A stretch of 64,000 nucleotides of DNA from a virus (IMGVR_UViG_3300045988_036168); one strand, 5' to 3'. Positions 2,061 through 58,842 are shown, counted from the stretch's first letter. A program made the numbers and translations. The notes: generated by a model not told the origin, from the sequence alone.

Positions 2061-2116
2061 ATTATCCATCTGGTTATCTTATGAGTATATTATACTGCGT
2101 TACCTACCTAAGTCAA
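2061..2116 (-). promoter_or_regulatory. promoter cassette A: TTGACT-16 bp-TATAAT plus downstream 18-bp operator
   Basis: Minus-strand -35 at 2116-2111 and -10 at 2094-2089. Operator ATTATCCA-TC-TGGTTATC at 2061-2078, 10 bp past the -10. The ~110-bp block recurs at 36.4, 45.3 and 58.8 kb. Confidence 0.65.
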
Positions 2117-2184
2117 TAGATTTACGTTAATTTTTCTATATTATTTCCATAATCATAAATTATTCCGTTAATGTTATCAGCAGG

Positions 2185-2214
2185 CAGAAAAAGAGCAGGC
2201 CGCAAAGCCTGCTC
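2185..2214 (-). terminator. intrinsic terminator after 2223..2741
   Basis: 8-bp stem GAGCAGGC/GCCTGCTC (2193-2200 / 2207-2214) followed on the minus strand by TTTTTCTG. Confidence 0.6.
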
Positions 2215-2222
2215 TCGGTTTC

Positions 2223-2741
2223 CTATTCAGTTTCGTCGTAGTCGTCGGGGTTCCACATCAGGCCGTTATCTTCGATGTACTGGGCCATGCTCAATAAAGC
2301 TCTGCCGTGGAGTTTGAACACCCGCTTGCGGTACATATCCTCCCGTTCCAACAGATCCTCCTCGTCCCCGTACAGCAGATCCACCACATCGCCCCAGCTT
2401 GCCCCGTCGAGGTATCGGCTTCGGATGACAGCCCGCTCGTCGGAGTGTTTCAGCCGACGGATGATTTTCTCGAAGAACATCCTCTCCCGCCGTCTGTGTT
2501 CCAGCGTCGCCCGGATGTCTTCCTCAAGGTCGAACTTCTGCTGCATCAAGTCTGAGATGCGGTCGTTGGATGGGCTCGGCGATTTTGGCATATCCGTGAG
2601 GGCTTGGGCTCCCACGCCTACCAGCTTCGTCTCCAACCGCTCCAGCCTCTCGGACTGATTTTCGATTTCACGCCTCAGATCACGGAGGTCTATCAGCCGT
2701 TGCTTGACGGCCTCGACGTCGTAGTGTTTTTCCTCGTTCAT
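2223..2741 (-). CDS. putative phage transcription regulator (sigma-70 region-4-like / DUF1492- or ArpU-like)
   Basis: C-terminal SDERAVIRSRYLDGASWGDVVDLLY...YRKRVFKLHGRALLSM resembles the region-4 HTH of phage late activators. It is the last gene of the replication arm and is followed by a terminator. Weak RBS. Confidence 0.45.
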   Translation of the reverse strand: MNEEKHYDVEAVKQRLIDLRDLRREIENQSERLERLETKLVGVGAQALTDMPKSPSPSNDRISDLMQQKFDLEEDIRATLEHRRRERMFFEKIIRRLKHSDERAVIRSRYLDGASWGDVVDLLYGDEEDLLEREDMYRKRVFKLHGRALLSMAQYIEDNGLMWNPDDYDETE

Positions 2742-2790
2742 AGAGTTCGGAAGCCCCGTTCACCTCACTTTCGCTCTGGCCCCGCGAGGC

Positions 2791-3123
2791 TCACGCCTGC
2801 TTGACCCACTCATACCTCTTCTCGAAGGGCTCAAAGTCCTTCTCTCCGAGGATGCCCTTCAAGTTCATGTCCATCTTGATCTGCCAATAGTCCTGCTCGT
2901 CACCCTTCTCCAGAGCGCCGTGGTACTTGTCGAAGACCTTGCCCCACGCCTCCACCACGCGGCGGATGCGCTTCTCGCCGAAGACATCCTTCCCCATGAC
3001 GGCTGGGTCGTTCAAGGTGAGAATGAGCGTATCGGTCATAAACTGGATGTACGTCTCTTTCTCAGCCTGCCGGTAGACGTTGACCGTGTTCCTCTGCCGT
3101 TGCAGGTATCCGTTCTTTCCCAT
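2791..3123 (-). CDS. hypothetical protein (110 aa)
   Basis: ORF track; same operon and strand; no family recognised. Confidence 0.6.
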   Translation of the reverse strand: MGKNGYLQRQRNTVNVYRQAEKETYIQFMTDTLILTLNDPAVMGKDVFGEKRIRRVVEAWGKVFDKYHGALEKGDEQDYWQIKMDMNLKGILGEKDFEPFEKRYEWVKQA

Positions 3124-3135
3124 GACTATCCCTCC

Positions 3136-4308
3136 TTATGACGATGCTTTGAAGTTGTAGATGGGCCTGATAATCTCCAGCACGTCGCAGGTCGGGCCGA
3201 TGCAGCCCATGATCTCCTTCGTGTCCTTGTAGGCGAACGGCGCCTCGTCTATGGTGTCGTAGCTGATACAGGAGCTATGCACGTTCCGCATCGTCTCTCG
3301 GTAGGCTCCGAGAGAAATAGACTCTCGGGCTTTGCTGCGGGACATCAGGCGGCCAGCTCCATGCGGTGCCGACTGGTTCCAATCGTCGTTGCCCTTGCCG
3401 ACGCAGATCAGAGAACCGTCGCGCATATTCATCGGAATAATCAGGCGCTCGCCCTTCTTAGCAGACACAGCACCTTTCCGCAGGATCATGCTCTCGTGGT
3501 CAATGTAGTTGTGCACGGTCGTAAACTGCTCCTGCGGGACGATGTGCATAGCTTTCAGGATGGCCTTTGCGATGGCCTGACGGTTGGCCTCCGCATAACG
3601 CTGGATGATCTCCATGTCGTTCAGGTAATCGTCCATCAGTTCGCCGGTCAGGTACGCGAGGTCGGGTGCCCCGAAGTCGCTGTGCTGTTTTCTCAGTTCT
3701 TCCAGCGCACCGGCGATTTCCTTCTGCCGGCCAGCAGCCTTGTACTCGGTGACAACACGGCTGATTTCCTCACTGGTGGGCTTTGTCATGGCCTCCATCG
3801 CTCTGCGCTGGTGCCAGTTCGCCACCTCAAGGCCGAGCTTTCGGCTGCCGGTGTGGATCACCAGCCAGAGGCCGCCGCTCTTATCCTTGTCAACCTCGAT
3901 GAAGTGATTGCCACCGCCGAGCGTCCCGATGCTGAGGAGCGCACGGCTGTTGTCGATGCCGACGCATTTCAGGCCGCTCAGGTCGAACCACTCCTTCGGG
4001 TAGTTGTGAGTACAGAAACCGGCCGGCACATTCCAGCGGATGGCCTTGTCCAGCTCGTCAAGGTCGAGCCTCACCCGCCCCAGCTTGACGGCCAGCATAC
4101 CGCAGCCGATGTCCACGCCCACGAGGTTCGGGCAGACGCGGTCGTGAATGGTCATCGTCGTTCCGATAGTACACCCAGCGCCGGCGTGAACGTCGGGCAT
4201 GATCCGTACCTTGGAGCCGTCACTCACGGGATGGCGGGACAGCTTCTCAATCTGCTCCGTCGCTTCCTGCTCGATGGTCTTCGCAAAAATCTTCACATCA
4301 TTGGTCAT
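3136..4308 (-). CDS. rtcB: RtcB-family 3'-phosphate RNA ligase
   Basis: Motifs MPDVHAGAGCTIG, GVDIGCGM, GGGNHFIE, HTGSRKLG, HNY and APHGAGR in the RtcB order; GAAAGGAAAAG RBS. Confidence 0.85.
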   Translation of the reverse strand: MTNDVKIFAKTIEQEATEQIEKLSRHPVSDGSKVRIMPDVHAGAGCTIGTTMTIHDRVCPNLVGVDIGCGMLAVKLGRVRLDLDELDKAIRWNVPAGFCTHNYPKEWFDLSGLKCVGIDNSRALLSIGTLGGGNHFIEVDKDKSGGLWLVIHTGSRKLGLEVANWHQRRAMEAMTKPTSEEISRVVTEYKAAGRQKEIAGALEELRKQHSDFGAPDLAYLTGELMDDYLNDMEIIQRYAEANRQAIAKAILKAMHIVPQEQFTTVHNYIDHESMILRKGAVSAKKGERLIIPMNMRDGSLICVGKGNDDWNQSAPHGAGRLMSRSKARESISLGAYRETMRNVHSSCISYDTIDEAPFAYKDTKEIMGCIGPTCDVLEIIRPIYNFKASS

Positions 4309-48127: not shown

Positions 48128-48168
48128 AGCGGCTACGCCCCGAAATGGAGCATAGCCGCTATTTTACT
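48128..48168. terminator. bidirectional terminator between the convergent nuclease and GIY-YIG genes
   Basis: 8-bp stem AGCGGCTA/TAGCCGCT (48128-48135 / 48153-48160); ATTTTACT after it on plus and TTTTCTTATTC after it on minus. Confidence 0.55.
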
Positions 48169-48245
48169 GCCCTCTGGAGCCGCTGGAACGTCGCAGAATG
48201 ATGGATTGTATGCCGGCGGCAACGTAAATCGACCTACGCTGGTCT

Positions 48246-48761
48246 TTACCGATGCCACAGCTCCTCGGAAACCTCGACCGACTCTTCTTTGAGTGCAGAG
48301 AGCCGTTCCTCGAACTCGTATTCCGTGATTTCGCCCGTCTTCCGCAGGCCGCGGAGTATCGAGATCTCCTGCGGGATCTCCGCATAGCGTTTCCGCAGGT
48401 GGTCAATGCGGGAGTCCTGCTTCGCAATCTCCTGCCGCCACCCTTCCCAGAGCGGCGTCGTGAACTCCTTCCATTCCAACTCAGGCAGCGTCACGCTCAG
48501 GTCATCCCTCGCCTTGTCGTCCACGTTCAGTGGCGGATGGAGCCGCAGGATGTAGTAGATCTCGTACAGGTTCATATCCGCTTCGCTCCCCAACTCCGCA
48601 TACTCGATCTTCGTCACCTGCTCTATGTTGACGGTGCGGTGCATCGGCTTGCTGAACAGGTGGCCGCGTATTCTGCTCTGCAGCGGCTGCTTGGTGCGGC
48701 CAACGTACACGAGGCAGCCCCCGTACCAGATCCGATAAATCAGGAACCCTTGCACCCTCAT
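48246..48761 (-). CDS. GIY-YIG nuclease-domain protein with C-terminal helical domain
   Basis: ORF track trimmed to MRVQGFLIYRIWYGGCLVYVGRTKQPLQSRIRGH...NLYEIYYILRLHPPLN (GIY...YVG...R..H...E...N pattern); ATGA coupling at 48758. Confidence 0.55.
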   Translation of the reverse strand: MRVQGFLIYRIWYGGCLVYVGRTKQPLQSRIRGHLFSKPMHRTVNIEQVTKIEYAELGSEADMNLYEIYYILRLHPPLNVDDKARDDLSVTLPELEWKEFTTPLWEGWRQEIAKQDSRIDHLRKRYAEIPQEISILRGLRKTGEITEYEFEERLSALKEESVEVSEELWHR

Positions 48762-48991
48762 TTGACGCACCTGAAACCAGCAAATTGTGCCAGACCCGCA
48801 CTCCCGTCCGGGCATTTGCAGGGAATGTGCATCGGCACGTTATTTCGCGTGAACGGGTTCGCTGCGAGCTGCTGATGCTGGATCACTTTGCCGAGCAGGG
48901 CCGGGAGCATTTCCGTCGGCACCTCCTGAGGCTGTGATCTGGACAACAGCCGACCGCACAACGGGCATTTGTAAACCGGCTGATACTTCAT
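48758..48991 (-). CDS. small Cys-containing protein (77 aa)
   Basis: ORF track 48758..49021 trimmed to MKYQPVYKCPLCGRLL... (ATGA coupling at 48988). Confidence 0.5.
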   Translation of the reverse strand: MKYQPVYKCPLCGRLLSRSQPQEVPTEMLPALLGKVIQHQQLAANPFTRNNVPMHIPCKCPDGSAGLAQFAGFRCVK

Positions 48992-49782
48992 TCCGCATAC
49001 CCCTCCGGTCGTTGCTCCCAATACGCAGAACGCTGCGCAATCGCCATGTCGATCAGCCAGAACTTTTCACGTTCATCCATCAGGACATCGACCGACCATT
49101 GCCCTGTCAGTCCTTGCACATCCCGCATTGCATCAGCGACCTTATCCTGAATGGCGTCCTTGAAGTGCGCGTACACGCCTTCCAATCTCTCTCGCTCATG
49201 CTCAAAAACGATCTTGTCGGTGGCATGGTACAGGTGCGGGTAAACGTAGTCGTAGTCCCAATAGTTCGCGGTGAAAATCGGCTCTCTGGTGTCGAAGTCG
49301 TAGAACACGCGGAACTCGGGCCGTAAGGGTAGGCCGTTGTAGATGCAAGGCGTCATCCCCACGGAACTTTCGATGAACTTTCGCACCACGATTTCGCCCG
49401 CGCCTTCTGCTCCGCAGCATATCGCCTCGTAGTTGATTAGGATGATCGCCCGGTACAGCTCATGCAGGCCGTACAGGTTGCACGTCCCATTCGCATTGAA
49501 CTTGTTGCTGAAGCGGCCATTCTTGACGAACACATGGCCGGTCAGCCCCATCTCTTTCAGCTTCGGGATGACGCGCTCCTCCAGATACACCTTGACAACC
49601 TCTTCGTCCTCCTTCGGGTGCTCCATGTAGAACGCCTCATAGAGCCGTTTCGCGTATTCCGGTTCCTTCTCCGCACTCGGCAGTTTCGTGTAGAACGTCA
49701 GCGGTGTCGGGATGCCGCAGTCCTTAATTTTCGGATACCAGAAGCTAAAGTCGTTCTCGTGTTCTCTCGTGTAGTCAAACAT
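48988..49782 (-). CDS. ATP-grasp-fold protein (phage R2K-like clade)
   Basis: ORF track trimmed to MFDYTREHEND... after AAAAGGAGGAGA. HVFVKNGRFSNKF, EIVVRKFIES, PEFRVFYDF and WSVDVLMDEREKFWLIDMAIAQRSAYW follow the ATP-grasp pattern. Confidence 0.5.
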   Translation of the reverse strand: MFDYTREHENDFSFWYPKIKDCGIPTPLTFYTKLPSAEKEPEYAKRLYEAFYMEHPKEDEEVVKVYLEERVIPKLKEMGLTGHVFVKNGRFSNKFNANGTCNLYGLHELYRAIILINYEAICCGAEGAGEIVVRKFIESSVGMTPCIYNGLPLRPEFRVFYDFDTREPIFTANYWDYDYVYPHLYHATDKIVFEHERERLEGVYAHFKDAIQDKVADAMRDVQGLTGQWSVDVLMDEREKFWLIDMAIAQRSAYWEQRPEGYAE

Positions 49783-50029
49783 CTTTTGTCTCCTCCTTTT
49801 CGTATTCGGTGAACTCCTCCGGCGTGTCGAGGAACTGCACTTGCTGGGCCTCCACCAGCCCAACCGTGCCATCCCGGCTTTCCAGTACGGCATAGGCGCC
49901 AGCAACAACACCACCGCCATGCCCGCCACGTAGGGGCGACGGCGGCACGATCTGCGAGATTTGCGTGAACCCGTGGAACAGGTAGAGCTCTTCGCCCACT
50001 TTGCACGGGCGCAGCTTGTTTGTGTTCAT
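49775..50029 (-). CDS. hypothetical protein (84 aa)
   Basis: ORF track. Confidence 0.55.
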   Translation of the reverse strand: MNTNKLRPCKVGEELYLFHGFTQISQIVPPSPLRGGHGGGVVAGAYAVLESRDGTVGLVEAQQVQFLDTPEEFTEYEKEETKDV

Positions 50030-50040
50030 TCTTGCCCTCC

Positions 50041-50436
50041 TCAGTATTTCAGTCGCACACCCTCAGGCAGCGGCGGCATCTCACGCCAGAACCTCGGCAC
50101 CCACACAAACGGAACGAACGTCGGGCGTTCAGAGCCGCAAAGCCTTTGCCACACGCAGCTAAAGATGTGACCGTACGAGTCCTTCGTCAAGACCTCTTGC
50201 CCCTCCCGTGGCTTTTGTTCTTTGAGCGTGTGCCATCCATCCTCCAGCATTGGCATCCACCATTTCACATGAACGTCCGGTTCCAAACCGTCCGGACGGA
50301 AGAGCGGCGGTTCCTTCGGGTCGTATACCACGAGGGAGCCATCGGTCACATGGCCCCATTTGCTGATAATCAGAACCCTCTCGCCAGCGGGAGGCAACGC
50401 CTCCTTTGTGGCCGTCCATCCGTTTGCCATCATCAA
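50041..50436 (-). CDS. hypothetical protein, possibly DUF551-like
   Basis: ORF track; W..T.EALPPAGERVLII pattern; ATGA coupling upstream. Confidence 0.45.
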   Translation of the reverse strand: MMMANGWTATKEALPPAGERVLIISKWGHVTDGSLVVYDPKEPPLFRPDGLEPDVHVKWWMPMLEDGWHTLKEQKPREGQEVLTKDSYGHIFSCVWQRLCGSERPTFVPFVWVPRFWREMPPLPEGVRLKY

Positions 50437-50852
50437 CCTCCATCGCCGAGCATAAGCTGGCCGGTCTGGAACACCTCATAGAGTGTCTTCTCATTTCGGT
50501 CAATCAGCTTCGGGAAGAACAGCTCGTCCATCGTGGCCTGCTCCGTCTCCACGAGGGCGACCTGCGCGGCGATCCAGTCCTTCAGGTTGCGCCACGCGAT
50601 GCGCTCGGCTTGTTCGTCGTCGCACTTGGTACGCTCTTTTGCCATCACTGCCTTAACGCCGTCCGGTCGTGCTTCCAGTCGGAAACCATGCAGGGAGCCG
50701 CAGCAGTCCAGCGCGAATGTGACTGCCGTGACTTTGCCGTTTTCGGCGTAGTCCATCATCACCTTTCGTGCTCCGTGCGCGGCGAGGATGCCTTGGATCT
50801 CGCCGACGGTCTGAACCGCCGGCACCTTGGTCGTGTAGTTCTTAATCGGCAT
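50433..50852 (-). CDS. hypothetical protein (139 aa)
   Basis: ORF track 50433..50906 trimmed to MPIKNYTTKVPAVQTVGEIQ... Confidence 0.5.
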   Translation of the reverse strand: MPIKNYTTKVPAVQTVGEIQGILAAHGARKVMMDYAENGKVTAVTFALDCCGSLHGFRLEARPDGVKAVMAKERTKCDDEQAERIAWRNLKDWIAAQVALVETEQATMDELFFPKLIDRNEKTLYEVFQTGQLMLGDGG

Positions 50853-50866
50853 CTGCAGTCCTCCTC

Positions 50867-51466
50867 TCAGTCGATGAACCGGATGTTCTCCGCCGCCGTG
50901 CTCCACACCTTGCCGTGCTCGTCCTCGACAATGCCCGTTGTGACAGGGACGGCCCCATTATCGAACTCCTCGAACGTGCTTCCCCATGTGTGGAACCATG
51001 CGACAAATTCATCCTCGCGCCACCCGTCGTTCGTGCGCTCATACACATGGGCGATGCACTTACGGCAGGTCGGCACGGGTGGCTTCCCGCGCAAAGGCCC
51101 TCCCTCCTGCCACGGGCGGAACTGCTGGATCTTTTCCAGCAGGCCCTTCGGATTGCCGTCGAAGAGCAAGGCTCGGTCATCGACATAGACCTTCGCAGGT
51201 GGCTTTTCCGCCGCCACATCGTCAACCTCAATGCCGTTCTCCCGAAGGTAGCGCCGCACCGCTCCCATGCCCTCAGGCGTGGCGCATCTGGTGGACACGA
51301 CCACCACTCTGTACCCCGCGGCTCTGATCCGCTTGATTTCTTCGTCAATGAGCGACACGGGCGGGTCGGGTACAACGCCTGCGCCCTGCCAGCCACTCAC
51401 ATAGGAATGGATGACGCCGTCAAAATCCAGCACCACATTCGGCTGATACTTCATCTCCCAAGCCAT
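50867..51466 (-). CDS. HAD-like phosphatase-fold protein with extra C-terminal domain
   Basis: VVLDFDGVIHSY (DxDxV/T motif), VVVVSTR, KPPAKVYVDDRAL. Confidence 0.5.
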   Translation of the reverse strand: MAWEMKYQPNVVLDFDGVIHSYVSGWQGAGVVPDPPVSLIDEEIKRIRAAGYRVVVVSTRCATPEGMGAVRRYLRENGIEVDDVAAEKPPAKVYVDDRALLFDGNPKGLLEKIQQFRPWQEGGPLRGKPPVPTCRKCIAHVYERTNDGWREDEFVAWFHTWGSTFEEFDNGAVPVTTGIVEDEHGKVWSTAAENIRFID

Positions 51467-51894
51467 TACTGCGCCTCCTTGCCAGTTCCAGTGCTGCCCC
51501 AGCCGCCGCGGTTCGGGTTGCCGAGATCCTCGACCTGCTCGAACTCAACAGGCTCGTCCTGCTTCACGAGGCGGAACTGGCAGATGCGCGTCCCCTTCGG
51601 GATTTCCGTATGACGGATGGCAACCGCCGGGAAGCCCCAGATGTCATCGTTACCGCAGTAGCTATGCTCGATGATGCCCACGCTGTTCGCCATGATGACG
51701 CCGAAGTTCTTGCAGGTCGAGCTTCTGGGAACGACCTGCGCATAGTAGCCGGCAGGAAGTTCCATCGCAATGCCGAGCGAAATGATTTTGCAGTCCAACG
51801 GCTCCAGAACGATGTCCTCGGCGGTGTAAAGGTCAACCCACTCGCCATGTGACTCGGGCAGCGGGTTCCCGTGCGTGTTGATTTTGACTTTCAT
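51466..51894 (-). CDS. dut: dUTP diphosphatase (trimeric dUTPase)
   Basis: ORF track trimmed to MKVKINTHGNPLP... after AAGGAGGG; VPRSS, GIIEHSYCGNDD and C-terminal NRGGWGSTG motifs. Confidence 0.8.
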   Translation of the reverse strand: MKVKINTHGNPLPESHGEWVDLYTAEDIVLEPLDCKIISLGIAMELPAGYYAQVVPRSSTCKNFGVIMANSVGIIEHSYCGNDDIWGFPAVAIRHTEIPKGTRICQFRLVKQDEPVEFEQVEDLGNPNRGGWGSTGTGKEAQ

Positions 51895-51895
51895 G

Positions 51896-52444
51896 TTAAG
51901 CCCTCCTTGATGTTTCGTATCTGTAATCGTAGCCATCGAGCCTGTACGGGTCTTTCACTTCACCCGTACATCTGGCCCAGATGGCGTTTTGACTGATGTA
52001 GTTCTTCTTGGCCGCCTCTCGTCCAGAAGAGTAAATGGCGACCACTTGACCGTCCTGATCGACCTTCATCACGGCCTTGCGCCGGTTTGCGCTGGAGATT
52101 TTGCCGCTGACCTGCTTGCTGGCGAACGACAGGTTCACCAGCTCGCAATCCATCTTTGCGCCGTTTCGATGGATGATGTTGTACCCCGGCCTGCGACCTC
52201 CCATGAAGGCGTCGGCCATGAGCCACACAACAGGCACATCTACTTTTCGGTTGTCCGCTGTCCGCATCTTCACGCAGGCGCGGGTTCGTCCGCTGATGTA
52301 CGGCTTCAGGACGTACCACTCGCCACTCTCCAGTTCCTTTCGGACGACTGCCTCGCGGTTGATTTGGTATCGGAAGCGATAGCCGGGGATTTCTACCCAT
52401 TCCGCGCTGTCAGGAGTTTGGCTTTTACACCGCTTCGCGCTCAT
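51896..52444 (-). CDS. HNH homing-endonuclease-like protein (NUMOD4 plus HNH_3-like)
   Basis: EWVEIPGYRFRYQINREAVV (NUMOD4-like), NIIHRNGAKMDCELVNL (HNH core), C-terminal DNA-binding-like repeat. Confidence 0.6.
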   Translation of the reverse strand: MSAKRCKSQTPDSAEWVEIPGYRFRYQINREAVVRKELESGEWYVLKPYISGRTRACVKMRTADNRKVDVPVVWLMADAFMGGRRPGYNIIHRNGAKMDCELVNLSFASKQVSGKISSANRRKAVMKVDQDGQVVAIYSSGREAAKKNYISQNAIWARCTGEVKDPYRLDGYDYRYETSRRA

Positions 52445-53034
52445 GCCTTGTCTCCGGTTTCGTCCAGATAGGTCGCCTGCAGATCGGCGATGTGCAGCAA
52501 GACGGCCAGCGGGAACTTGTCAAAGGCGTTGCCAACGCTGTACCCGCCGCCTTGGAAGTCGTTATCCGAGAACCCCATGTGCCAACGGATTGCCATAGCC
52601 TCCTCGCGGCTCAGGCGCATAAACCCAGAGATGATGTAGACGCTCTTCTCACCATGCCCGTAGGGCAGCTTGTCATCGACCACATAGAACGGGTACTGTT
52701 CCCACCTGCCCTGATCGTTCTTGCGGTTGCGCATCTCGACCGCGTAGAAGTTCGCCTTGCAGATGTCGTGAAGCAGACCGCAAACCGCAATCGTCTCCAT
52801 CGACGGCTCATTGAAGCCCGGAGTGATGGTCGCCTCGTTGGCACAAATTGCCTTCATCCGTTCAAATACATGGAGGCTGTGCTCAAGCAACCCGCCGGGG
52901 CTGGACAGGTGGAAACGGGTGCTGGCCGGTGCCGTAAAGAAGTCCGAGGACTCGATCCACGCCAGCAGCTTGTCAGCGCCCGGTCGCGTGATATTCTCTG
53001 TGTACGCCTTGATAAACTTGTCTTTCATGCTCAT
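52441..53034 (-). CDS. HD-domain phosphohydrolase
   Basis: GGLLEHSLHV...VCGLLHDICKA...YGHGEKS...WHMG (H...HD...H...D-type metal ligands). Confidence 0.6.
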   Translation of the reverse strand: MSMKDKFIKAYTENITRPGADKLLAWIESSDFFTAPASTRFHLSSPGGLLEHSLHVFERMKAICANEATITPGFNEPSMETIAVCGLLHDICKANFYAVEMRNRKNDQGRWEQYPFYVVDDKLPYGHGEKSVYIISGFMRLSREEAMAIRWHMGFSDNDFQGGGYSVGNAFDKFPLAVLLHIADLQATYLDETGDKA

Positions 53035-53041
53035 ATCCTCC

Positions 53042-53200
53042 TCAAAAATACATCATGCTCAGTGCCCAAGACGCCAGATGCAGAACGCCCGCAGCCGCGA
53101 ACAGCGCGATATAGACGTGCTTACCTCTGCCGCTCTCGCCGATGACGCCGACGGTTGCCAGCACCATCACGATCATCGTAAACACCTGAAAGAACCTCAC
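53042..53200 (-). CDS. small two-TM membrane protein (52 aa)
   Basis: Not in the ORF track. GTG at 53200 overlaps the upstream stop (GTGA). ...MIVMVLATVGVIGESGRGKHVYIALFAAAGVLHLASWALSMMYF; alternative ATG at 53176. Confidence 0.4.
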   Translation of the reverse strand: MRFFQVFTMIVMVLATVGVIGESGRGKHVYIALFAAAGVLHLASWALSMMYF

Positions 53201-53556
53201 TTCACATACGCCCCCTTCCATGCTTCGATTGCTTCATCGCAGAACTCGCCGTCGCACTGACCGACAACGCCCTTTCTGCCCTCGCAGTATTCGCACAGAT
53301 CCGTTTCGAGCATATCGACGATCTGGTCATCGGTCATGTCCCCGTAATACTCGCCATTGGTGAGCTTCACCGCTATGAAAACGCGCCCGCTGTCGATAGC
53401 CTGCTGGCAGGTCCTCAACTTCCATTCCAACAGCACAGCCTTGTGCATCGTCTTCGTTGTGCGATGACCACAATGGACGATGAACCAGTCATGCTCCAGA
53501 AGTTCGGCCACGCTGTCAACGCGGTCTCCCTGTTTGTACTTTCTCTTCATTTTCAT
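53197..53556 (-). CDS. hypothetical protein (119 aa)
   Basis: ORF track 53197..53607 trimmed to MKMKRKYKQGD... after TAGGAGGTAAC. Confidence 0.55.
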   Translation of the reverse strand: MKMKRKYKQGDRVDSVAELLEHDWFIVHCGHRTTKTMHKAVLLEWKLRTCQQAIDSGRVFIAVKLTNGEYYGDMTDDQIVDMLETDLCEYCEGRKGVVGQCDGEFCDEAIEAWKGAYVK

Positions 53557-53564
53557 GTTACCTC

Positions 53565-54413
53565 CTAAAATCCGTTCCATATTTGCTTGCCGTGATACTC
53601 GAAGCATTCGGCATCGCAGCAGTCTTCGGGAGTCAGATCCGCAAGCCGCTTTCGGCTGCGGGAGATGAACAGGTCGGAGTCCATAGGCGGCTTCGGGTTC
53701 TTATCCCTCAGCAGCTCGTCTACCTCCAGCAGCTTCGCGTAAGTCTGCGGCTGGTGTTCCTTGAGGTTCTCGAAGAAATAGTTTCGGTGGAACGGGCAAA
53801 AGCAGCAGGCGGACGCCTTGGTGTCCAGCCCCCAGACATCCAGTATGTAGGCGTAGTTGTCAGCCCTCGTCAGCTCCATGTCCACCAACGGGAAACGGTT
53901 CACAAACATCGGGTTCGGGCTGTCCTTGCACCGCTGTTTTTCCTCGAAGCTGAACCCCATGTGCATCTCGTGGGCCTTCTTGTCCTCGTCGCGGAGCCGC
54001 TGGCCTTTCTTGTAGCCGAGCACTTCCCAGCGGACGAACTTTGAGATGCGCTCCACCTTGTAGTCGAGGGTGCAGTTTCGCGGCATCCTTGACTTGTGAC
54101 CGTCATCCCGCAGCGTCCACCATGGGATGCTGACCGTGCGGCGTCTCCCGAAGTTCTGCATCAGATCCCGATGCAGCAGCGCGTCCAGCATCTCATATCG
54201 AATACCGGCGGCGTCGCAGGCTCGGTGTACGAACTCGGCCTGTTGCATGACCCACGGCGGCTCGAAGCCGAGGTCGCAGAAGACGACCAGATCGTAAACC
54301 GGAACCAGCGGGTACGGGCGTTCGTGGCCTTTGCGCTCGGCGTCCACATTCTCACAGGACATCAGGGCCAAGGCCGTCGATTGCATTCCCGCACCGAAGG
54401 ACAAAATCTTCAC
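53565..54413 (-). CDS. PAPS-reductase-like PP-loop ATP pyrophosphatase family protein
   Basis: GTG start. N-terminal MKILSFGAGMQSTALALM (an SGGxDS-type PP-loop variant common in phage PAPS-reductase-like proteins); Cys-rich C-terminus. Confidence 0.55.
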   Translation of the reverse strand: MKILSFGAGMQSTALALMSCENVDAERKGHERPYPLVPVYDLVVFCDLGFEPPWVMQQAEFVHRACDAAGIRYEMLDALLHRDLMQNFGRRRTVSIPWWTLRDDGHKSRMPRNCTLDYKVERISKFVRWEVLGYKKGQRLRDEDKKAHEMHMGFSFEEKQRCKDSPNPMFVNRFPLVDMELTRADNYAYILDVWGLDTKASACCFCPFHRNYFFENLKEHQPQTYAKLLEVDELLRDKNPKPPMDSDLFISRSRKRLADLTPEDCCDAECFEYHGKQIWNGF

Positions 54414-55066
54414 GTTTGCCCCTCCACGCTTTCCCCGCGCCGGAACTCAGCGGCCATCATGTCGGCAGCCTCGCGGCTGATGCCGATTGCCTCGAACTGC
54501 TGGTAAATCTCCTCGCAGTCTTCAGGGGCCGCAGAGACCAGCGCAAAGGTCAATTCAGCATCCGTCGGAGCAGGCTTCTCGGGTTGTTCCTCAGCTTCAG
54601 CCTCAAGGTGCCGTGCTACCCTCTCCATGTATTCCTCGATCTTCGGCTTTCCGAACTCGACCACAGCCGTCATATAGTCCTCGTGCTCGGAAGCGTTTTC
54701 CTCGAACTCGCGGCTCCAGTTCAAAATGTGGTGGAACAGGTCGCGGCTGTCGATTTCTGCGCCGTTCGAGCCGAGCATCTGCGCCGCCAGCGCAGAGAGG
54801 TCATAGACGCACTCGCAAAGGCGGATCTCGCTGTCTTCACCCACCGTGGTCACGAACTTCTCGCCGGCGTCGCTGTAACCACAGGTCTTGCAGTCCCAGA
54901 CGTCTTCCCTGTCCGGTTCGTGCGTGACCTCGATGCAGTCATTCAGGCACCGAACGAACGTGCCGCTGTCATCCAGTTCCCAGTCCTGCGTAACGTGCGC
55001 CGTCGCGCAAAAGGTCTTTCCGCCGCAACGTGGGCAGCGCAGAACCTCATTTTCTTTCAAAATCAT
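54410..55066 (-). CDS. hypothetical protein with N-terminal zinc ribbon
   Basis: ORF track 54410..55084 trimmed to MILKENEVLRCPRCGG...CKTCG after GGAGGAGC. Confidence 0.5.
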   Translation of the reverse strand: MILKENEVLRCPRCGGKTFCATAHVTQDWELDDSGTFVRCLNDCIEVTHEPDREDVWDCKTCGYSDAGEKFVTTVGEDSEIRLCECVYDLSALAAQMLGSNGAEIDSRDLFHHILNWSREFEENASEHEDYMTAVVEFGKPKIEEYMERVARHLEAEAEEQPEKPAPTDAELTFALVSAAPEDCEEIYQQFEAIGISREAADMMAAEFRRGESVEGQT

Positions 55067-55412
55067 CACTTGCTCCTCCATCACTCAGGCGCTTTTTCAG
55101 CCCTGCATATACTCCCTCAAGGGTTTCAACGAGTCCATCTGCCTCAAGGCTGTCCGTCGAAACCAGCCTGCAATCGCTCATGCTGATGTCGTCGATCAGA
55201 TGGACGCCGTAGAACTGTTCGTCAGGCTCCAAACCGGCCTTGTTCTCAATCAGCGCCGCCGTTATCTCTCCGTTCTGTTCTTTCTCGGCCTTTGCCACGA
55301 GGAAGTAGGTCGAAGAGCGGTCGCCGTTGACCGTGGTTGGGCCGTTGCCCAGATCCGCCATCATCGCCTCTGCCAGTTCTTTCGGGGCGATTGCAAAATT
55401 GAACCTTTTCAT
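55047..55412 (-). CDS. hypothetical protein (121 aa)
   Basis: ORF track 55047..55424 trimmed to MKRFNFAIAPKEL... (ATGA coupling at 55409). Confidence 0.5.
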   Translation of the reverse strand: MKRFNFAIAPKELAEAMMADLGNGPTTVNGDRSSTYFLVAKAEKEQNGEITAALIENKAGLEPDEQFYGVHLIDDISMSDCRLVSTDSLEADGLVETLEGVYAGLKKRLSDGGASDDFERK

Positions 55413-55801
55413 CCCTGGAGCCACCCTTCCATTTCTTCCTTGAAGTAGTCCTCGTCGCCATCATCGCAGGCACCGGACATAATCTGCTTGCCCTTGTAGA
55501 GCACGAAGTACCACATTCCGTCGGGGTTCCCCACCATCTTGCGCCACACCGCTGCAAAGTCGGCCACGCTGTTGAAGACGTAGCAGGTGCGGATCGTGGC
55601 CGCATCTTTGAAGTCGTCCACGAAGTTTTCCGCATCCTTCTCGGGGTTGCTGTCATCCGCGAACATCATCACGACCAGCCCCCTCGGGATAGCCACATCG
55701 AAGGACTGCCCGCACTTCGGGCAAATCCCTTTCCAGCCGAGGCCGTCACGCACGATGGACTCTTCAAACTCGAACCCGCAGTCCGCACAGGTCAATTTCA
55801 T
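55409..55801 (-). CDS. hypothetical protein with N-terminal zinc ribbon (130 aa)
   Basis: ORF track; CADCG...CPKCG. Confidence 0.55.
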   Translation of the reverse strand: MKLTCADCGFEFEESIVRDGLGWKGICPKCGQSFDVAIPRGLVVMMFADDSNPEKDAENFVDDFKDAATIRTCYVFNSVADFAAVWRKMVGNPDGMWYFVLYKGKQIMSGACDDGDEDYFKEEMEGWLQG

Positions 55802-56154
55802 TTCAAACCCTCCTCAAACATTTCGATGTAACTGTCCGCGCTCTGAAGCTGGCGCTCCACCTCCGCATCCGTGTTTGCTGTGAAGCAGTACCGCGCCACC
55901 GCGTAACCCTTCTTGCTGATCCACCAACTTGTCTTGCTGTTGAACGCATTTCTGACCGGGGAGAAAACGTAGTCCCCGAAAATCCGTTGCTCCGGTGTCG
56001 TCTTTGCCGCTGCTTCTGCGGCCTTGGCCTTCGCCTGCCACCATTTCAGCTTGCGGTCGAGCGAGTCAAACGCTCGGGCGAAGTCACAGGGAGCATCGCC
56101 GTAGCAGACATCTCTGCAGTGCTTGCGGTACGGGCAAAGTCTGCATCTTTTCAT
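55798..56154 (-). CDS. hypothetical Cys-rich protein (118 aa)
   Basis: ORF track; MKRCRLCPYRKHCRDVCYGDAPC. Confidence 0.55.
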   Translation of the reverse strand: MKRCRLCPYRKHCRDVCYGDAPCDFARAFDSLDRKLKWWQAKAKAAEAAAKTTPEQRIFGDYVFSPVRNAFNSKTSWWISKKGYAVARYCFTANTDAEVERQLQSADSYIEMFEEGLK

Positions 56155-56402
56155 CAGAACGCCCTCCGGTACACACGCTTGACGCTGATGAACGCCGCCT
56201 CCGGGTGCTTCAGCAGGTAGAACCGCCGCTGGCTCTCGTTCGGGTAGGTGTTCCCGTTTTCGAGGCGGCCGAGCAGATGGTGGTTCTCGTCGAAGAGTTC
56301 CACGAAGTAGGCCGTCTCCACGCCCATGTTCGGGTCATCCTTGGCGTAATCGTCGAGGACGGGCAGGTGCTCAACCCGTGTTCCATCTCTTTTCAGGTAC
56401 AT
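56154..56402 (-). CDS. hypothetical protein (82 aa)
   Basis: ORF track. Confidence 0.55.
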   Translation of the reverse strand: MYLKRDGTRVEHLPVLDDYAKDDPNMGVETAYFVELFDENHHLLGRLENGNTYPNESQRRFYLLKHPEAAFISVKRVYRRAF

Positions 56403-56413
56403 ATCAGATCCTC

Positions 56414-56644
56414 CTATTCCATCGCGGCCCTCAGGACCTCGATTGCTTCCGTGATGTTGTCGTGCGCCGTGTCCAGATTGTCGGCCGCGGCTTCAATGGC
56501 CGCATAGCGTTCGCTGCCTTCCAACCCCTCAGGAGCATTGTCGAACTTCTCCTGCTCGTCGTCGTGCAGGCTCTCCACCTCGTCGCCGAGGGTTTCAAGG
56601 GCGTTGACGATTTTCTCAATGGCCGCCCGCGTTGCTTTGTTCAT
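56414..56644 (-). CDS. hypothetical helical protein (76 aa)
   Basis: ORF track. Confidence 0.55.
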   Translation of the reverse strand: MNKATRAAIEKIVNALETLGDEVESLHDDEQEKFDNAPEGLEGSERYAAIEAAADNLDTAHDNITEAIEVLRAAME

Positions 56645-56653
56645 GACTCCTCC

Positions 56654-57100
56654 TCAATAGTCGGCGTCGAGGTTTTCATCTCGCTCGTCGTACTTGACTC
56701 CGTCGTAGCCGGTGGTCGTCATGATGTGCTCGTAGCACTTCGCACAGACACGGCGAAACGGGATGCCGTAGTAGTCGCGGGTGCCGTACATCTCGAACGG
56801 GCGCGCCTCCTTGCCGCACTTCGGGCAGGTCTCTTTCACCAGCCGATAGCCCGGAAGCGACGTCAGGTGGCCGCCGTCGTCAATCAGGAAGTCATCCCAT
56901 GTGCCGTCATCGAACAGTTTGCAGGCGGCCTCATACGCGCTGTCGAAGCTGTCGTGCTCAGACAACGGCTTGTGGTAGCGGCAACCGGCGGCCACATCTT
57001 CGACCTTCAAAATCACGCCGCCGCGCCCGCACTTCGGGCAGTCTGCGCCGATCTGCTTCTCGTAGCCGCAGAACGGGCAATTCACGTTCTTCTTTTCCAT
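56654..57100 (-). CDS. hypothetical protein with multiple zinc ribbons (148 aa)
   Basis: ORF track; CPFCG...CPKCG, CPKCG...CAKC. Confidence 0.55.
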   Translation of the reverse strand: MEKKNVNCPFCGYEKQIGADCPKCGRGGVILKVEDVAAGCRYHKPLSEHDSFDSAYEAACKLFDDGTWDDFLIDDGGHLTSLPGYRLVKETCPKCGKEARPFEMYGTRDYYGIPFRRVCAKCYEHIMTTTGYDGVKYDERDENLDADY

Positions 57101-57345
57101 CAGTTCTCATCCTTGCCGAGCCAGACCAGCAAACGGATCTGGTCGTGCATCGCTACAAGCCTGCGCTGGGCATCTGCCAGCTCCTCGATCATGGCGGGGA
57201 CGAACTGGATGATGTCGTCCACATCGGAGTTGGCGATGTAATGCCGCAATTCGATTACCTTCCGAGCCTGCCAGCACCCCGTCTCCCCGATCTTTTGGCT
57301 CAGTTCCTCAACCTTGCGGTCGATGGACTTCTTCAGGTCGCTCAT
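57100..57345 (-). CDS. hypothetical protein (81 aa)
   Basis: ORF track. Confidence 0.55.
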   Translation of the reverse strand: MSDLKKSIDRKVEELSQKIGETGCWQARKVIELRHYIANSDVDDIIQFVPAMIEELADAQRRLVAMHDQIRLLVWLGKDEN

Positions 57346-57357
57346 TTCAAAACCTCC

Positions 57358-57597
57358 TTACCGTCTGCTTGCTCTGCGCCGCTGACGGGCAAGCCGTCTC
57401 TGACGCTGTTCTTCTCTGTACTGACGCTCTACCTCTTCGTCGTCCTCGTAATCAGGCAGGCGGTCGAGGTATCGCTGGATGAACGGGATATGCGGAAAAA
57501 CATAGTCGGCGATCAGAGCGCCGATACCGAGAACCACGAGAAAACCAGCCAAAATCATCAGGTCGACGACGGCCTCTCCGATCAGATCAGGTGTCAT
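57358..57597 (-). CDS. small membrane protein with Arg-rich tail (79 aa)
   Basis: ORF track; hydrophobic segment VVDLMILAGFLVVLGIGALIADYVF. Confidence 0.55.
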   Translation of the reverse strand: MTPDLIGEAVVDLMILAGFLVVLGIGALIADYVFPHIPFIQRYLDRLPDYEDDEEVERQYREEQRQRRLARQRRRASRR

Positions 57598-57610
57598 TTC
57601 CTTTCCTCCT

Positions 57611-57829
57611 TCATTTTAAGAACAGCCTTCTGGGCAATGCGTCCAGAGTGCATCGGTTCTTAAACCACTTCTCGTAGCTACTGTACTTGAAGGCAATTTC
57701 ATTGGCTTTCACGAGGTAGCGGTTCATGGCGTCAAATCCTCCGTCGCCTATCTCTGCAACGAAAATCGGCTCAGCGGTCCTTGGGTCCAGTCTGTCGTTT
57801 CTGCGACATACAATCCACAGTTCCGTCAT
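57611..57829 (-). CDS. hypothetical protein (72 aa)
   Basis: ORF track; ATGA coupling upstream. Confidence 0.55.
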   Translation of the reverse strand: MTELWIVCRRNDRLDPRTAEPIFVAEIGDGGFDAMNRYLVKANEIAFKYSSYEKWFKNRCTLDALPRRLFLK

Positions 57830-58155
57830 CTCGTTTCCTCCTTCAGATACGGAAGCTCGTTCTTCACAAAATCCTCCGCCAAACAGCTCTCTTCCTCACT
57901 CAGCTCACTTGCCCACTCGCTCAGGTACTCCTTTCGAGCGGCCGTGTTCATCCAATTTTCTTTTCTCAACCCGGCGGATGCGAGAACAATGCAGCCGTCT
58001 GCTCCCACACCGTACAGTTGAGAGCCGTGCTTTTGCTCCCACTCAATCTCCGCGTCGATGGTTTCCGCATCAGCCTTGATGATGTACTCGACCACCGAAT
58101 GGTCGAAATCGTATCGGAACAGCTTGCCGCTGACCTTGACTGGATTACTTTTCAC
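57826..58155 (-). CDS. hypothetical protein (~109 aa)
   Basis: ORF track 57826..58185; start placed at the GTG at 58155 (GTGA coupling, GGAGG 10 nt upstream); alternative ATG at 58185. Confidence 0.45.
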   Translation of the reverse strand: MKSNPVKVSGKLFRYDFDHSVVEYIIKADAETIDAEIEWEQKHGSQLYGVGADGCIVLASAGLRKENWMNTAARKEYLSEWASELSEEESCLAEDFVKNELPYLKEETR

Positions 58156-58412
58156 AGGTTGTACGCCTCCTTGCCCGCTTTCCATTCCTTCATGAAGTCC
58201 TTGTAGTCTTCCTTGCCATCCACGGCCACTTCCGCCCAGAGGAACCCCGGTTCTCCAAAGATGTCGAAGCCGTAGCCCGTCTCCTCCAGAATTGCTACCA
58301 CCTTGTCTTCCTCTTCTTCGGTGAAAGAGATAATTGCCGCCGGTTCAAGCGGTCTCACCAGCTTGTCGCCGAAGGAGTTCACCGTCTGGCGTCCCTTGTA
58401 CTGCACGTTCAT
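58152..58412 (-). CDS. hypothetical protein (86 aa)
   Basis: ORF track 58152..58463 trimmed to MNVQYKGRQTVNS... after GGCAGGAGAC. Confidence 0.5.
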   Translation of the reverse strand: MNVQYKGRQTVNSFGDKLVRPLEPAAIISFTEEEEDKVVAILEETGYGFDIFGEPGFLWAEVAVDGKEDYKDFMKEWKAGKEAYNL

Positions 58413-58428
58413 GTTCTTGTCTCCTGCC

Positions 58429-58752
58429 TCACATCTGAATTTCAAACCGGCTGAAATCATCATTTGCGGTCAGCACGTACTCTTTACGGTTGACAGCCAC
58501 GGGAACGCGCTCGCCGTCTCTATATGCTGACGTTTCCATGTAGCCAGCCCAGCGGTCTTCGCTCTCTTTGCGGGTCAGGGTCACGCGGGCATGGGGAGAA
58601 ACGCTCAGCATATTCTCGGCTTCATACACGGTGAACGCCGTCATGTGGCGCCCCTCTGCTTTGAGCTGCTTCGCAAGCTCTCTGGTGTTGTCGCTTGCAG
58701 CGTTCAGAGCGTCCAGCAGATCCATGAGAGGATAGGTCTGGTTCAGCTTCAT
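58429..58752 (-). CDS. hypothetical protein (107 aa), first gene after promoter cassette D
   Basis: ORF track; ~57-nt leader after the cassette D -10. Confidence 0.6.
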   Translation of the reverse strand: MKLNQTYPLMDLLDALNAASDNTRELAKQLKAEGRHMTAFTVYEAENMLSVSPHARVTLTRKESEDRWAGYMETSAYRDGERVPVAVNRKEYVLTANDDFSRFEIQM

Positions 58753-58786
58753 AGTTGCCTCCTGATTTGCCGTCTGGCTTCTTTCA

Positions 58787-58842
58787 ATTATCCATGTGGT
58801 TATCTTATGTGTTAATTATACTTTATTACCTACCTATGTCAA
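58787..58842 (-). promoter_or_regulatory. promoter cassette D: TTGACA-16 bp-TATAAT plus downstream 18-bp operator
   Basis: Minus-strand -35 at 58842-58837 and -10 at 58820-58815; operator ATTATCCA-TG-TGGTTATC at 58787-58804, 10 bp past the -10. Confidence 0.65.

Follow-up and report, generated by a model that had tools for sequence, protein, structure and literature searches.

A palindromic operator shared by the immunity switch and distant promoters of a common gut prophage points to a probable dispersed-operator repressor regulon

The immunity switch of the phage studied here contains an 18-bp palindrome that recurs at distant promoters, raising the question of whether one phage protein controls transcription units spread along much of the genome. 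The window, by which we mean the whole stretch of 64,000 nucleotides that was analysed (IMGVR_UViG_3300045988_036168), belongs to a temperate phage of roughly 100 kb in attP configuration. Integrated copies are located in the 3' end of queA, and the prophage is very common in gut bacteria and among the most prevalent human-gut prophages. On its sequence, the phage is a relative of the Brigit-like Faecalibacterium/Oscillospiraceae temperate phages, and its genes follow the Brigit-like order of integrase, hypothetical gene, repressor / Cro-like gene, 171-aa regulator and exonuclease/RecT/replication genes. The immunity region and the adjoining integrase and attachment site carry the following features.

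14487..15002, minus strand: 171-aa regulator, kept across lineages (54% identity to Brigit)
15050..15067: operator O2, between the Cro-like gene and the 171-aa regulator gene
15110..15127: weak operator copy, 3-4 mismatches, overlapping the last Cro-like codons (L-P-T-G-stop)
15111..15329, minus strand: 72-aa Cro-like protein, HTH_3 (E 2.6e-6, 27.8 bits; 50% identity to Brigit gp04), a candidate second operator reader
15384..15412, minus strand: Pcro, TTGACA-17-TATAAT, a 12/12 match to consensus
15390..15407: operator O1, ATTATCCA-CG-TGGCTAAT, filling the Cro-side promoter spacer, one mismatch from the ideal palindrome
15444..15479, plus strand: rightward promoter-like site TTGCGA-17-TACAAT (15444-15472) with half-site TGGCTAAT
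15514..15852, plus strand: 112-aa XRE/HTH_3 repressor (E 1.8e-12, 47.5 bits; transcriptional-regulator/repressor PHROGs; 34% identity to Brigit gp03)
16860..18659, plus strand: large serine integrase (52% identity to Brigit), followed by the attP core at about 18905-18925
18797: 'degenerate' operator-like copy between the integrase gene and the attP core

A reading made from the sequence alone had placed O1 inside the spacer of a perfect leftward promoter and a half-site against the -10 of the rightward one. Both placements held, with Pcro at 15412-15384 and TGGCTAAT abutting TACAAT. O2 overlaps a weak promoter-like site (15077-15050) and is preceded by a terminator-like hairpin (15087-15100). 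An operator copy lies at the equivalent position at the end of the Cro-like gene in most lineages examined, L083 excepted. The HTH_3 matches of the repressor and the Cro-like protein both exceed the Pfam gathering cut-off of 23 bits. The repressor shows distant similarity to the ICEBs1 Xre-family regulator, the TP901-1 CI N-terminal domain (E 3e-4) and DdrO, and a Pfam domain search found no S24 peptidase domain in it.

The operator is 18 bp long and is built on the half-site ATTAnCCA, with a 10-bp centre-to-centre distance. A scan of the whole window with ATTAKCCRNNYGGYTAWY gave six exact matches where none was expected, all at positions named in the sequence-only reading (15390-15407, 15050-15067, 2061, 36355, 45324 and 58787); a seventh copy lies at 46490. 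Because this consensus was drawn from the sites themselves, the scans were repeated with patterns not so derived, and the recurrence and enrichment of the motif were borne out. The ideal palindrome ATTATCCANNTGGATAAT with up to three mismatches found six sites against 0.095 expected, and the loose core TTANCCRNNYGGNTAA with up to one mismatch found seven over 57 kb against 0.21-0.23. At up to three mismatches ATTAKCCRNNYGGMTAAT, a pattern built from the two immunity-region sites only, found 12 sites against 1.02 expected and recovered every cassette site described below, the promoter-E site and both copies that had been called degenerate. The degenerate copy at 18797, between integrase gene and attP core, is mutated in an otherwise near-identical prophage and is therefore probably not functional. 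Outside the immunity region, the window contains these features.

2061..2116, minus strand: cassette A (-35 2111-2116, -10 2089-2094, operator 2061-2078); terminator hairpin 2193-2214 upstream; first gene 1664-2032
19273..58752, minus strand: post-lysis accessory arm of ~40 kb, with leftward transcription predicted from D, E, C and B
26696: weak operator-like site in an intergenic gap inside a long operon
36355..36410, minus strand: cassette B (-35 36405-36410, -10 36383-36388, operator 36355-36372); terminator 36602-36629; first gene 35736-36287; heads ~16 kb of minus-strand genes
43822: weak 'degenerate' operator-like site, likewise in an intergenic gap inside a long operon
45324..45379, minus strand: cassette C (-35 45374-45379, -10 45352-45357, operator 45324-45341); terminator 45453-45483; first gene 45078-45305, ortholog of Brigit gp19
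46440..46505, minus strand: promoter E, TTGCTT-16-TATAAT with the TAGGTAGGTA spacer; operator copy 46490-46505, upstream of the -35
58765..58842, minus strand: cassette D (-35 58837-58842, -10 58815-58820, operator 58787-58804); weaker second palindrome 58765-58782, 22 bp centre to centre; terminator 59072-59111; first gene 58429-58752

Cassettes A-D are near-identical TTGAC(T/A)-16-TATAAT promoters with 11-12/12 consensus matches. The gap of exactly 10 nt between -10 element and operator, claimed in the sequence-only reading, was confirmed at all four. Other parts of that description needed adjustment: all four cassettes point leftward on the minus strand, the terminator said to precede each lies directly upstream for A and C but 190-230 bp upstream for B and D, and the conserved AT-rich upstream block is well kept in A, B and C but not in D. 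The TAGGTAGGTA spacer occurs only in the five arm promoters in a scan of the window (5 against 0.5 expected). Promoter E does share this spacer and has its operator copy upstream, as had been proposed; at ~25-40 bp upstream of the -35, that location is not a classical repression position.

Since A-D are paralogous copies forming a 110-nt repeat family, we did not count them as four independent events. What supports the operator independently is the pair of immunity sites, the operator type common to A, B and D, the distinct operator of C and the E site with its different placement. Cassettes B and C share 57 identical promoter bases, yet 5/17 operator positions differ, four of the five being degenerate in the consensus. 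Among near-identical relatives, variation in O1 and O2 is confined to the central R-NN-Y positions. The cassette operators are imperfect palindromes, with halves agreeing at 6/8 positions and 2-3 mismatches to the ideal, and their affinity may therefore be low or tuned.

The evidence that one operator type links the switch to distant promoters and the 40-kb arm, as the sequence-only reading held, is its co-variation across phage lineages. The switch operator of Faecalibacterium phage FP_Brigit is TTACC-N5-GGTAA and that of MT835491 is ACTCA-N6-TGAGT. When all three genomes were scanned with all three operators, each was enriched only for its own (window, 7 against 0.23 expected; Brigit, 9 against 0.17; MT835491, 10 against 1.4), and the off-diagonal counts were near chance except for five Brigit-type matches against 0.9 in MT835491. 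Copies in both relatives lie in or just after post-lysis-arm promoters. The Brigit type occupies spacers or leaders of promoters at 13.0, 13.2, 51.35, 52.4 and 57.56 kb, and in MT835491 three arm promoters (46.6, 49.5 and 51.9 kb) have the resident type immediately behind their -10. Furthermore, promoters at orthologous positions bear different operators, each matching the resident immunity type. Brigit gp19 and the first gene behind cassette C share 60% identity, and both follow a promoter with the resident-type operator; similarly, the gene lying immediately upstream of cassette B has its match in Brigit gp84, itself just upstream of the 57.56-kb promoter.

All lineages have the motif filling their Pcro spacer. 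Of the further lineages, at least three (L085, L105 and L112) have a repeat of their own Pcro spacer sequence 7-10 kb downstream, within or close behind a recognisable promoter, and L088, L089 and L138 repeat it without a clear promoter; the one in L097 looks like a chance match. IMG/VR contigs and GTDB MAGs yielded 38 distinct TAGGTAGGTA cassettes, of which 35 hold the operator at the same offset, although the 10 nt between -10 and operator, and the leaders, differ. The cassettes of relatives head differing gene sets.

Three HTH proteins had been put forward as readers. The likely binder, from sequence comparison, is the 112-aa XRE-type repressor, its sites probably shared with the 72-aa Cro-like protein. 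Both are HTH_3 proteins with homologues in Brigit, and from one operator class to another they differ in the recognition-helix region; because the two co-vary together with the operator, the sequence data cannot separate them. The operator geometry, with 8-bp half-sites 10 bp centre to centre, would fit an XRE dimer on a palindrome whose half-sites lie one helical turn apart. The candidacy of the 171-aa regulator (14487-15002) has weakened: its HTH stays the same in phages whose operators differ, which makes a role in setting specificity unlikely.

We therefore propose a regulon, and consider it probable, in which the 18-bp palindrome is the operator of the immunity module and one repressor silences the early operon, the cassette-A unit and the 40-kb arm in the lysogen. 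A dimer of the 112-aa repressor would sit on two ATTAnCCA half-sites. At Pcro it would occlude RNA polymerase, and at the cassettes, where the motif lies at about +4 to +21 from the predicted starts of four consensus sigma-70-type promoters, it would cover the transcription start region. Operator-less promoters would stay on in the lysogen, namely that of the YafQ/DinJ module at the arm's distal end (19852-19879) and that of a defence-like, PDC-S11-like island (46961-48123, plus strand). On loss of the repressor, all silenced units would fire together as immediate-early transcripts, and later the Cro-like protein would probably read the same sites and turn them down, as in lambdoid switches. 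The arm encodes C5 and N6/N4 DNA methyltransferases, a third methyltransferase-like protein, PAPS-reductase-like, HD and DpnD/PcfM domain proteins and many unknown proteins; the DNA methyltransferases and the PAPS-reductase-like and DpnD/PcfM-like proteins fit early anti-restriction or host-takeover functions.

Alternatively, the main or sole reader of the sites might be the Cro-like protein or a different phage HTH protein, acting in early shut-off during lytic growth while the arm is expressed in the lysogen like lysogenic-conversion genes. The Cro-like protein co-varies with the operator class just as the repressor does, and operator copies cluster around and inside its gene. With lysis on one side and att on the other, the arm occupies the usual place of morons, and accessory genes there are often lysogen-expressed, which counts against our prediction that it is silenced. 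Against this, the Pcro spacer is filled in every lineage, a position required of a lysogenic repressor, and it is the operator-less promoters that look like true lysogen-expressed units. A second XRE protein (46578-46946) is encoded in the arm beside the promoter-E site, but it is only 26% identical to the 112-aa repressor and, unlike the repressor, Cro-like protein and 171-aa regulator, has no counterpart in Brigit or MT835491 by protein comparison. We regard this account as unlikely. An origin of the cassettes as duplicated or gene-converted promoter modules at moron or module boundaries, resembling the switch operator through chance or ancestry and with no regulatory meaning, would suit the repeat family, the identity of B and C over 57 nt and the different gene sets behind the cassettes of different relatives. 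It is already disfavoured, and in our view very improbable, since in three lineages, with three operator specificities, operator and switch change together, the B/C operator differences beside an identical promoter avoid core positions, the offset is fixed in nearly all of the diverged cassettes, and Brigit arm promoters of unrelated sequence hold Brigit's own operator.

The position of the motif near the start of the predicted A-D transcripts would also allow it to work as RNA, as a 5'-leader element for stability, processing or translation. The cassette B leader does have a strong fold (-22.6 kcal/mol, z -4.6), including a hairpin in which the ribosome-binding site is paired, but the structured part is downstream of the motif. 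In leaders A, C and D the motif forms no RNA hairpin (z -0.4 to +0.3), and at Pcro and Brigit's arm promoters it lies in the untranscribed spacer; we give an RNA role scarcely any weight. Equally improbable is a host transcription factor as reader: phages of related hosts differ in the motif according to their immunity module, a pattern to be expected if the reader is encoded by the phage.

Within the proposed regulon, conservation of TAGGTAGGTA points to a possible second input at the arm promoters. This spacer is kept in rabbit and mouse Oscillospiraceae phages, and MT835491 arm-promoter spacers hold a partial reverse complement of it (ACCTACC, or shorter CCTAC-containing versions). A bolder and doubtful extension is that the arm promoters are two-input devices, with TAGGTAGGTA read by a second factor and tandem operators in the start region, which together with stoperator-like sites gate the 40-kb arm as an immediate-early anti-defence/host-takeover arm. 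On this extension, the operator/repressor pairs of the lineages, of at least three and probably eight or more specificities, would make up a natural collection of orthogonal switches.

The local layout resembles lambdoid and TP901-1 switches (the TP901-1 CI/MOR switch is described in PMC7250872) in its divergent repressor and Cro-like genes, its operator inside the lytic promoter and its additional downstream operators, where the Cro-like gene ends and beyond it. The repressor of the window phage is shorter, at 112 aa. Operators of classical CI/Cro switches are generally confined to the immunity region, whereas here the same operator recurs 13-43 kb away. Palindromic repressor sites at many dispersed loci, beside highly similar early promoters, are found in the Streptomyces phage phiC31, which differs from the window phage in host, repressor family and promoter type.

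Mycobacteriophage L5 and cluster A have more than 20 repressor sites genome-wide, in promoters and short intergenic gaps (PMC9283540). Each L5 site is an asymmetric 13-mer to which a monomer binds, with an orientation-dependent effect on elongation, whereas the main sites here are palindromic and occupy a constant position over the start region of consensus promoters; an L5-type stoperator system was therefore rejected. The weak sites at 26696 and 43822, in their intra-operon gaps, could act like stoperators in a minor role.

Phage P1 has 22 C1 operators dispersed on its genome (PMC8546580). As we propose for the window phage, operators scattered through a temperate phage genome, of roughly 94 kb in P1, answer to a single immunity repressor. 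P1 C1 operators head scattered early and accessory operons, and here too the switch operator recurs at distant promoters, as it does in Brigit and MT835491 with their own operators. The P1 operator is asymmetric and 17 bp long (ATTGCTCTAATAAATTT), whereas ours is a palindrome with 8-bp half-sites and unrelated sequence. The candidate binder here is a 112-aa HTH_3 protein, and to our knowledge P1 C1 is not an XRE-type dimer. P1 is also a plasmid prophage, whereas the window phage integrates by a serine integrase. Membership in the P1 C1 family proper was rejected on operator symmetry and sequence and on the HTH_3 nature of the candidate binders.

In SPbeta, a 15-bp element, SPBRE, lies in about ten promoter regions of the 134 kb prophage and is bound by the lysogeny repressor MrpR (PMC10516654). 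A repeated element in the promoter regions of many operons is likewise found here, in a large prophage rich in genes of unknown function, and the resemblance drawn in the sequence-only reading was a fair one, though architectural only. MrpR has a tyrosine-recombinase-like fold, whereas the candidates here, which belong to a divergent CI/Cro-type switch, are small proteins of the XRE HTH type. A binder of the MrpR type finds no support in the Pfam domain search, in which the immunity-module proteins are HTH_3 and the sole recombinase found is a serine integrase. Together, the results describe a layout that is real and conserved, but known in principle from P1, L5 and SPbeta: that of a probable dispersed-operator repressor regulon.

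The operator of the immunity switch was confirmed to recur at promoters of the accessory arm, and comparison of this phage with its relatives supports the interpretation that one operator type links them to the switch. The window has a G+C content of about 57% and carries nearly all of its genes on the minus strand, and the gene order of its early operon is that of Faecalibacterium phage FP_Brigit (Brigit).

Main features of the window
15.4-18.7 kb, plus strand: lysogeny module with an HTH_3 repressor (112 aa, 15514-15852), a 305-aa protein and a large serine integrase
Leftward from 15.4 kb: early operon with a Cro-like HTH protein (72 aa), a conserved 171-aa regulator, a lytic transglycosylase, an exonuclease, a RecT-like protein and replication genes
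19.3-58.8 kb, minus strand: accessory arm of small genes for the most part, with C5 and N6/N4 DNA methyltransferases, a third methyltransferase-like protein, and PAPS-reductase-like, HD and DpnD/PcfM domain proteins among its products
59902-61407: endolysin

The 305-aa protein, encoded 3' of the repressor gene, matched nothing in Pfam or PHROG and lacks an HExxH motif, and its assignment as an ImmA-like protease is thus unsupported. Rfam and tRNA scans of the window returned no match.

The sequence-only reading had placed one palindromic operator at two positions in the switch, namely 15390-15407 in the spacer of Pcro, the promoter of the Cro-like gene, and 15050-15067 between the genes for the Cro-like protein and the 171-aa regulator, and at four dispersed leftward promoters, cassettes A to D (operators starting at 2061, 36355, 45324 and 58787). 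All six are exact matches to its motif, and Pcro is indeed a 12/12 consensus promoter with the operator as its spacer. Because the exact consensus came from the sites themselves, three less circular patterns were also counted in the window.

Operator patterns counted in the window
Ideal palindrome ATTATCCANNTGGATAAT, up to 3 mismatches: 6 observed, 0.095 expected
Pattern derived from just the two switch operators, ATTAKCCRNNYGGMTAAT, up to 3 mismatches: 12 observed, 1.02 expected
Loose core TTANCCRNNYGGNTAA, up to 1 mismatch: 7 observed, 0.21-0.23 expected

The motif was rejected as an RNA hairpin, since it forms none in the leaders of cassettes A, C and D. A degenerate copy at 18797, flanked by the integrase gene and the attP core, was rejected as a functional site; it carries three substitutions in an otherwise near-identical prophage and is unlikely to be a working operator. 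Weak operator-like sites at 26696-26713 and 43822-43839, which each have a single good half-site (GGCTAAT), occupy two of the rare intergenic gaps within long operons; a start codon follows some 30-50 nt later, and neither site has a promoter close by. These sites could serve as stoperator-like roadblocks.

Cassettes A to D were confirmed as near-consensus promoters (11-12/12) on the minus strand. Each consists, in order, of an AT-rich block, TTGAC(A/T), TAGGTAGGTA plus 6 nt, TATAAT, 10 nt, the operator, a ribosome-binding site and ATG. A terminator precedes every one of them, as had been claimed, with the qualification that those of B and D lie 190-230 bp upstream. The four cassettes are paralogs and therefore do not represent independent events. 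Promoters B and C share an identical 57-nt stretch (36372-36428 versus 45341-45397). Their flanking operators and leaders differ, the operators at 5/17 positions, four of which are degenerate in the consensus; the 57-nt identity suggests gene conversion or recent spread of a promoter module. The operator copy of promoter E (46440-46467) is placed unlike those of A to D. Cassette D has a weaker second palindrome at 58765-58782, 22 bp further downstream, and AGCCAGACGG is kept at this position in several relatives, which together suggest cooperative tandem binding.

Within the window, TAGGTAGGTA is found in the five arm promoters only (5 versus 0.5 expected).

Positions of TAGGTAGGTA
2101-2110, cassette A
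36395-36404, cassette B
45364-45373, cassette C
46452-46461, promoter E
58827-58836, cassette D

Rabbit and mouse Oscillospiraceae relatives, picked with a probe that contains this element, retain it, and a cassette at L214 position 1301, chosen without that probe, retains it in part. Arm-promoter spacers of MT835491, a second related phage, hold a partial reverse complement of it (ACCTACC in one, a shorter CCTAC-containing form in two), and it is absent from the arm promoters of Brigit. The spacer element may be the site of a second regulator.

Three further observations concern the surroundings of the arm promoters. A noncoding element about 100 nt long is present in three copies, one 5' of cassette D, one 5' of B and a third at 43.9 kb (58890-59060, 36440-36600 and 43840-43960, respectively), which have common blocks such as GGTGAAAGTRTAT and GGTCTTGT; the element had no Rfam match, and its 4-bp hairpin shows compensatory changes (GGCC/GGCC, AGCC/GGCT, GCCC/GGGC). 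The leader of cassette B (36288-36354, minus strand) is strongly structured (-22.6 kcal/mol, z -4.6), with a long hairpin and, after it, a second one in which GUUUUCUU base-pairs with the ribosome-binding site AAGGAGAC, and this structure may exert translational or attenuation control. Opposite the leader of the promoter-E transcript, a plus-strand promoter-like site (46308-46336, TTGACA-17-TACACT with TG) is followed by a strong plus-strand terminator with a T-run (46387-46419), and the pair (46308-46427) could be the source of an antisense small RNA some 85 nt long.

The claim that one operator type links the switch to the dispersed promoters gained strong in silico support from co-variation across lineages. 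The Pcro spacer of Brigit holds a palindrome unlike that of the window, TTACC-N5-GGTAA, which occurs 9 times in the whole Brigit genome versus 0.17 expected (about 0.6 by the tool's own shuffles). Among the copies are one at the end of the Cro-like gene, those at a site and a leader before gp19 (13.0-13.2 kb), and those in the spacer or leader of each of three post-lysis-arm promoters (51.35, 52.4 and 57.56 kb). Similarly, the switch operator of MT835491, ACTCA-N6-TGAGT, directly follows the -10 element of arm promoters at 46.6, 49.5 and 51.9 kb that have a common conserved core. A 3x3 cross-scan of motifs and genomes was strongly diagonal, with off-diagonal counts near chance except for the Brigit-type motif in MT835491 (5 versus 0.9 expected). 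The window arm and the 10-kb Brigit arm are partially syntenic. Brigit gp19 and the gene that cassette C heads are 60% identical, with the resident operator in the promoter before each, and the gene upstream of cassette B matches Brigit gp84, itself upstream of the 57.56-kb Brigit promoter.

Across viral contigs, 80 immunity loci had the same switch layout, and their spacer palindromes were of many lineage-specific types. In three (L085, L105 and L112) the locus's own spacer sequence appears again 7-10 kb downstream, within a recognisable promoter or immediately after it, and in three others (L088, L089 and L138) it appears again in intergenic sequence with no clear promoter; a distal match in L097 looks like chance. 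When distal hits in 18 lineages were scored with whole 17-nt Pcro spacers, allowing up to 3 mismatches, the matrix was noisy and structured at class level only, because the central bases vary; half-site motif scans and inspection of context were more informative. Among close relatives, the two switch operators vary only at the central R-NN-Y positions.

A 16-mer promoter core recovered cassettes in about 20 viral contigs, in genomes labelled Clostridiales bacterium CCNA10 and Oscillibacter sp. UBA8280 (a MAG), and in the rabbit and mouse Oscillospiraceae MAGs; in the genome collection most matches were chance hits in unrelated phyla, and only contigs with several matches, those of the genomes and MAGs just named, were useful. 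The cassettes of CCNA10 are almost identical to those of the window. A window-type site lies at offset 11-12 after the -10 element in 35 of the 38 distinct cassette sequences, whose flanks differ. Cassettes of the window type were also sought alongside a heterologous switch; many cassette contigs have no detectable switch and are shorter than the full genome of about 103 kb.

Three proteins had been put forward as readers of the operator. The HTH region of the 171-aa regulator (14487-15002) is invariant across phages with three different operators, and this protein is therefore unlikely to set specificity. The repressor and the Cro-like protein are each homologous across the family, and in both the recognition-helix region differs between operator classes; for the repressor, TTETTISRYVSG is common to all Brigit-class proteins while that of the window has STPTLSRYLQG. 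Sequence comparison does not separate the two as binders. By analogy with CI/Cro switches, both probably read the sites, with the repressor acting in the lysogen. Solved relatives of the repressor are distant only (an ICEBs1 Xre-family regulator, the TP901-1 CI N-terminal domain and DdrO), and a domain search found no peptidase domain in it.

The final codons of the Cro-like gene (Leu-Pro-x-Gly/Arg, stop) double as an operator copy, at 15110-15127 in the window (TTG CCA ACT GGT TAA) and 3228-3242 in Brigit (locus L001; TTA CCG AAA GGG TAA). The copy is present in L082, L085, L092 and L095, with a few more codons before the stop in L085 and L092, and absent from L083. Coding sequence and overlapping operator appear to co-evolve across lineages.

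We propose that a repressor dimer binds half-sites 10 bp apart; it would occlude the promoter spacer at Pcro and cover about +4 to +21 at A to D. Two promoters lack the operator, that of YafQ/DinJ (19852-19879) and that of a plus-strand PDC-S11-like gene, and these units would stay on in the lysogen. The YafQ toxin (19273-19548) and an antitoxin read from its sequence as DinJ/RelB-like (19545-19820) lie at the att-proximal end of the arm behind their own consensus promoter. The second unit belongs to an island (46578-48123) that interrupts the arm, with a 122-aa XRE regulator (capH/control-protein-like, minus strand) and a divergent 361-aa plus-strand gene. This gene has matches to two candidate defence families of PADLOC, PDC-S11 and PDC-S18, and is preceded by a promoter-like site of its own (46961-46989).

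Host queA lies no more than about 200 nt after the integrase gene in integrated copies, and the match between the window and these prophages ends at about 18923, with divergence beyond; together these indicate that the window is in the attP (circular or excised) configuration, in which the integrase gene abuts the post-lysis arm. The attP region (18660-18972) includes a 38-aa ORF (18856-18972) that is a replacement queA 3' end (C-terminus). A related viral contig is 103.6 kb long, which puts the probable size of the whole phage at about 100 kb. The exact repressor sequence occurs in 12,624 indexed blocks of a public assembly collection, and contigs that bear it (L228-L233) are chromosomal, up to 945 kb, from human-gut metagenomes and adjacent to queA. 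These data indicate a very widespread prophage of human-gut Oscillospiraceae, kin to a Faecalibacterium phage.

If this model is correct, the arm would be a repressor-gated early arm rather than a set of lysogen-expressed morons, and its methyltransferases and genes of unknown function would need to be reinterpreted. Lineage-specific operator/repressor pairs, together with the conserved consensus promoters, are also candidate parts for inducible and mutually orthogonal expression in gut Clostridia, for which genetic tools are, to our knowledge, currently lacking.

The principle of dispersed operators is established in other phages. P1 has 22 dispersed, asymmetric C1 operators (PMC8546580), L5-like mycobacteriophages have more than 20 asymmetric repressor sites, stoperators included (PMC9283540), and in SPbeta a 15-bp element, SPBRE, is bound by the recombinase-fold protein MrpR in about ten promoter regions (PMC10516654). 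A literature search gave no paper on how Brigit-like phages are regulated. The regulatory logic is familiar, but the human gut carries this phage at very high prevalence, its arm is unusually large and its family holds several natural operator/repressor specificities. The phage studied here belongs to none of the P1, L5 and SPbeta families and resembles them in its predicted dispersed immunity-repressor operators. Unlike those of P1 and L5, its operator is palindromic, and unlike MrpR its candidate binders are small XRE proteins of a divergent CI/Cro-type switch. It would thus add an XRE-dimer, palindromic example to the principle known from P1, L5 and SPbeta.
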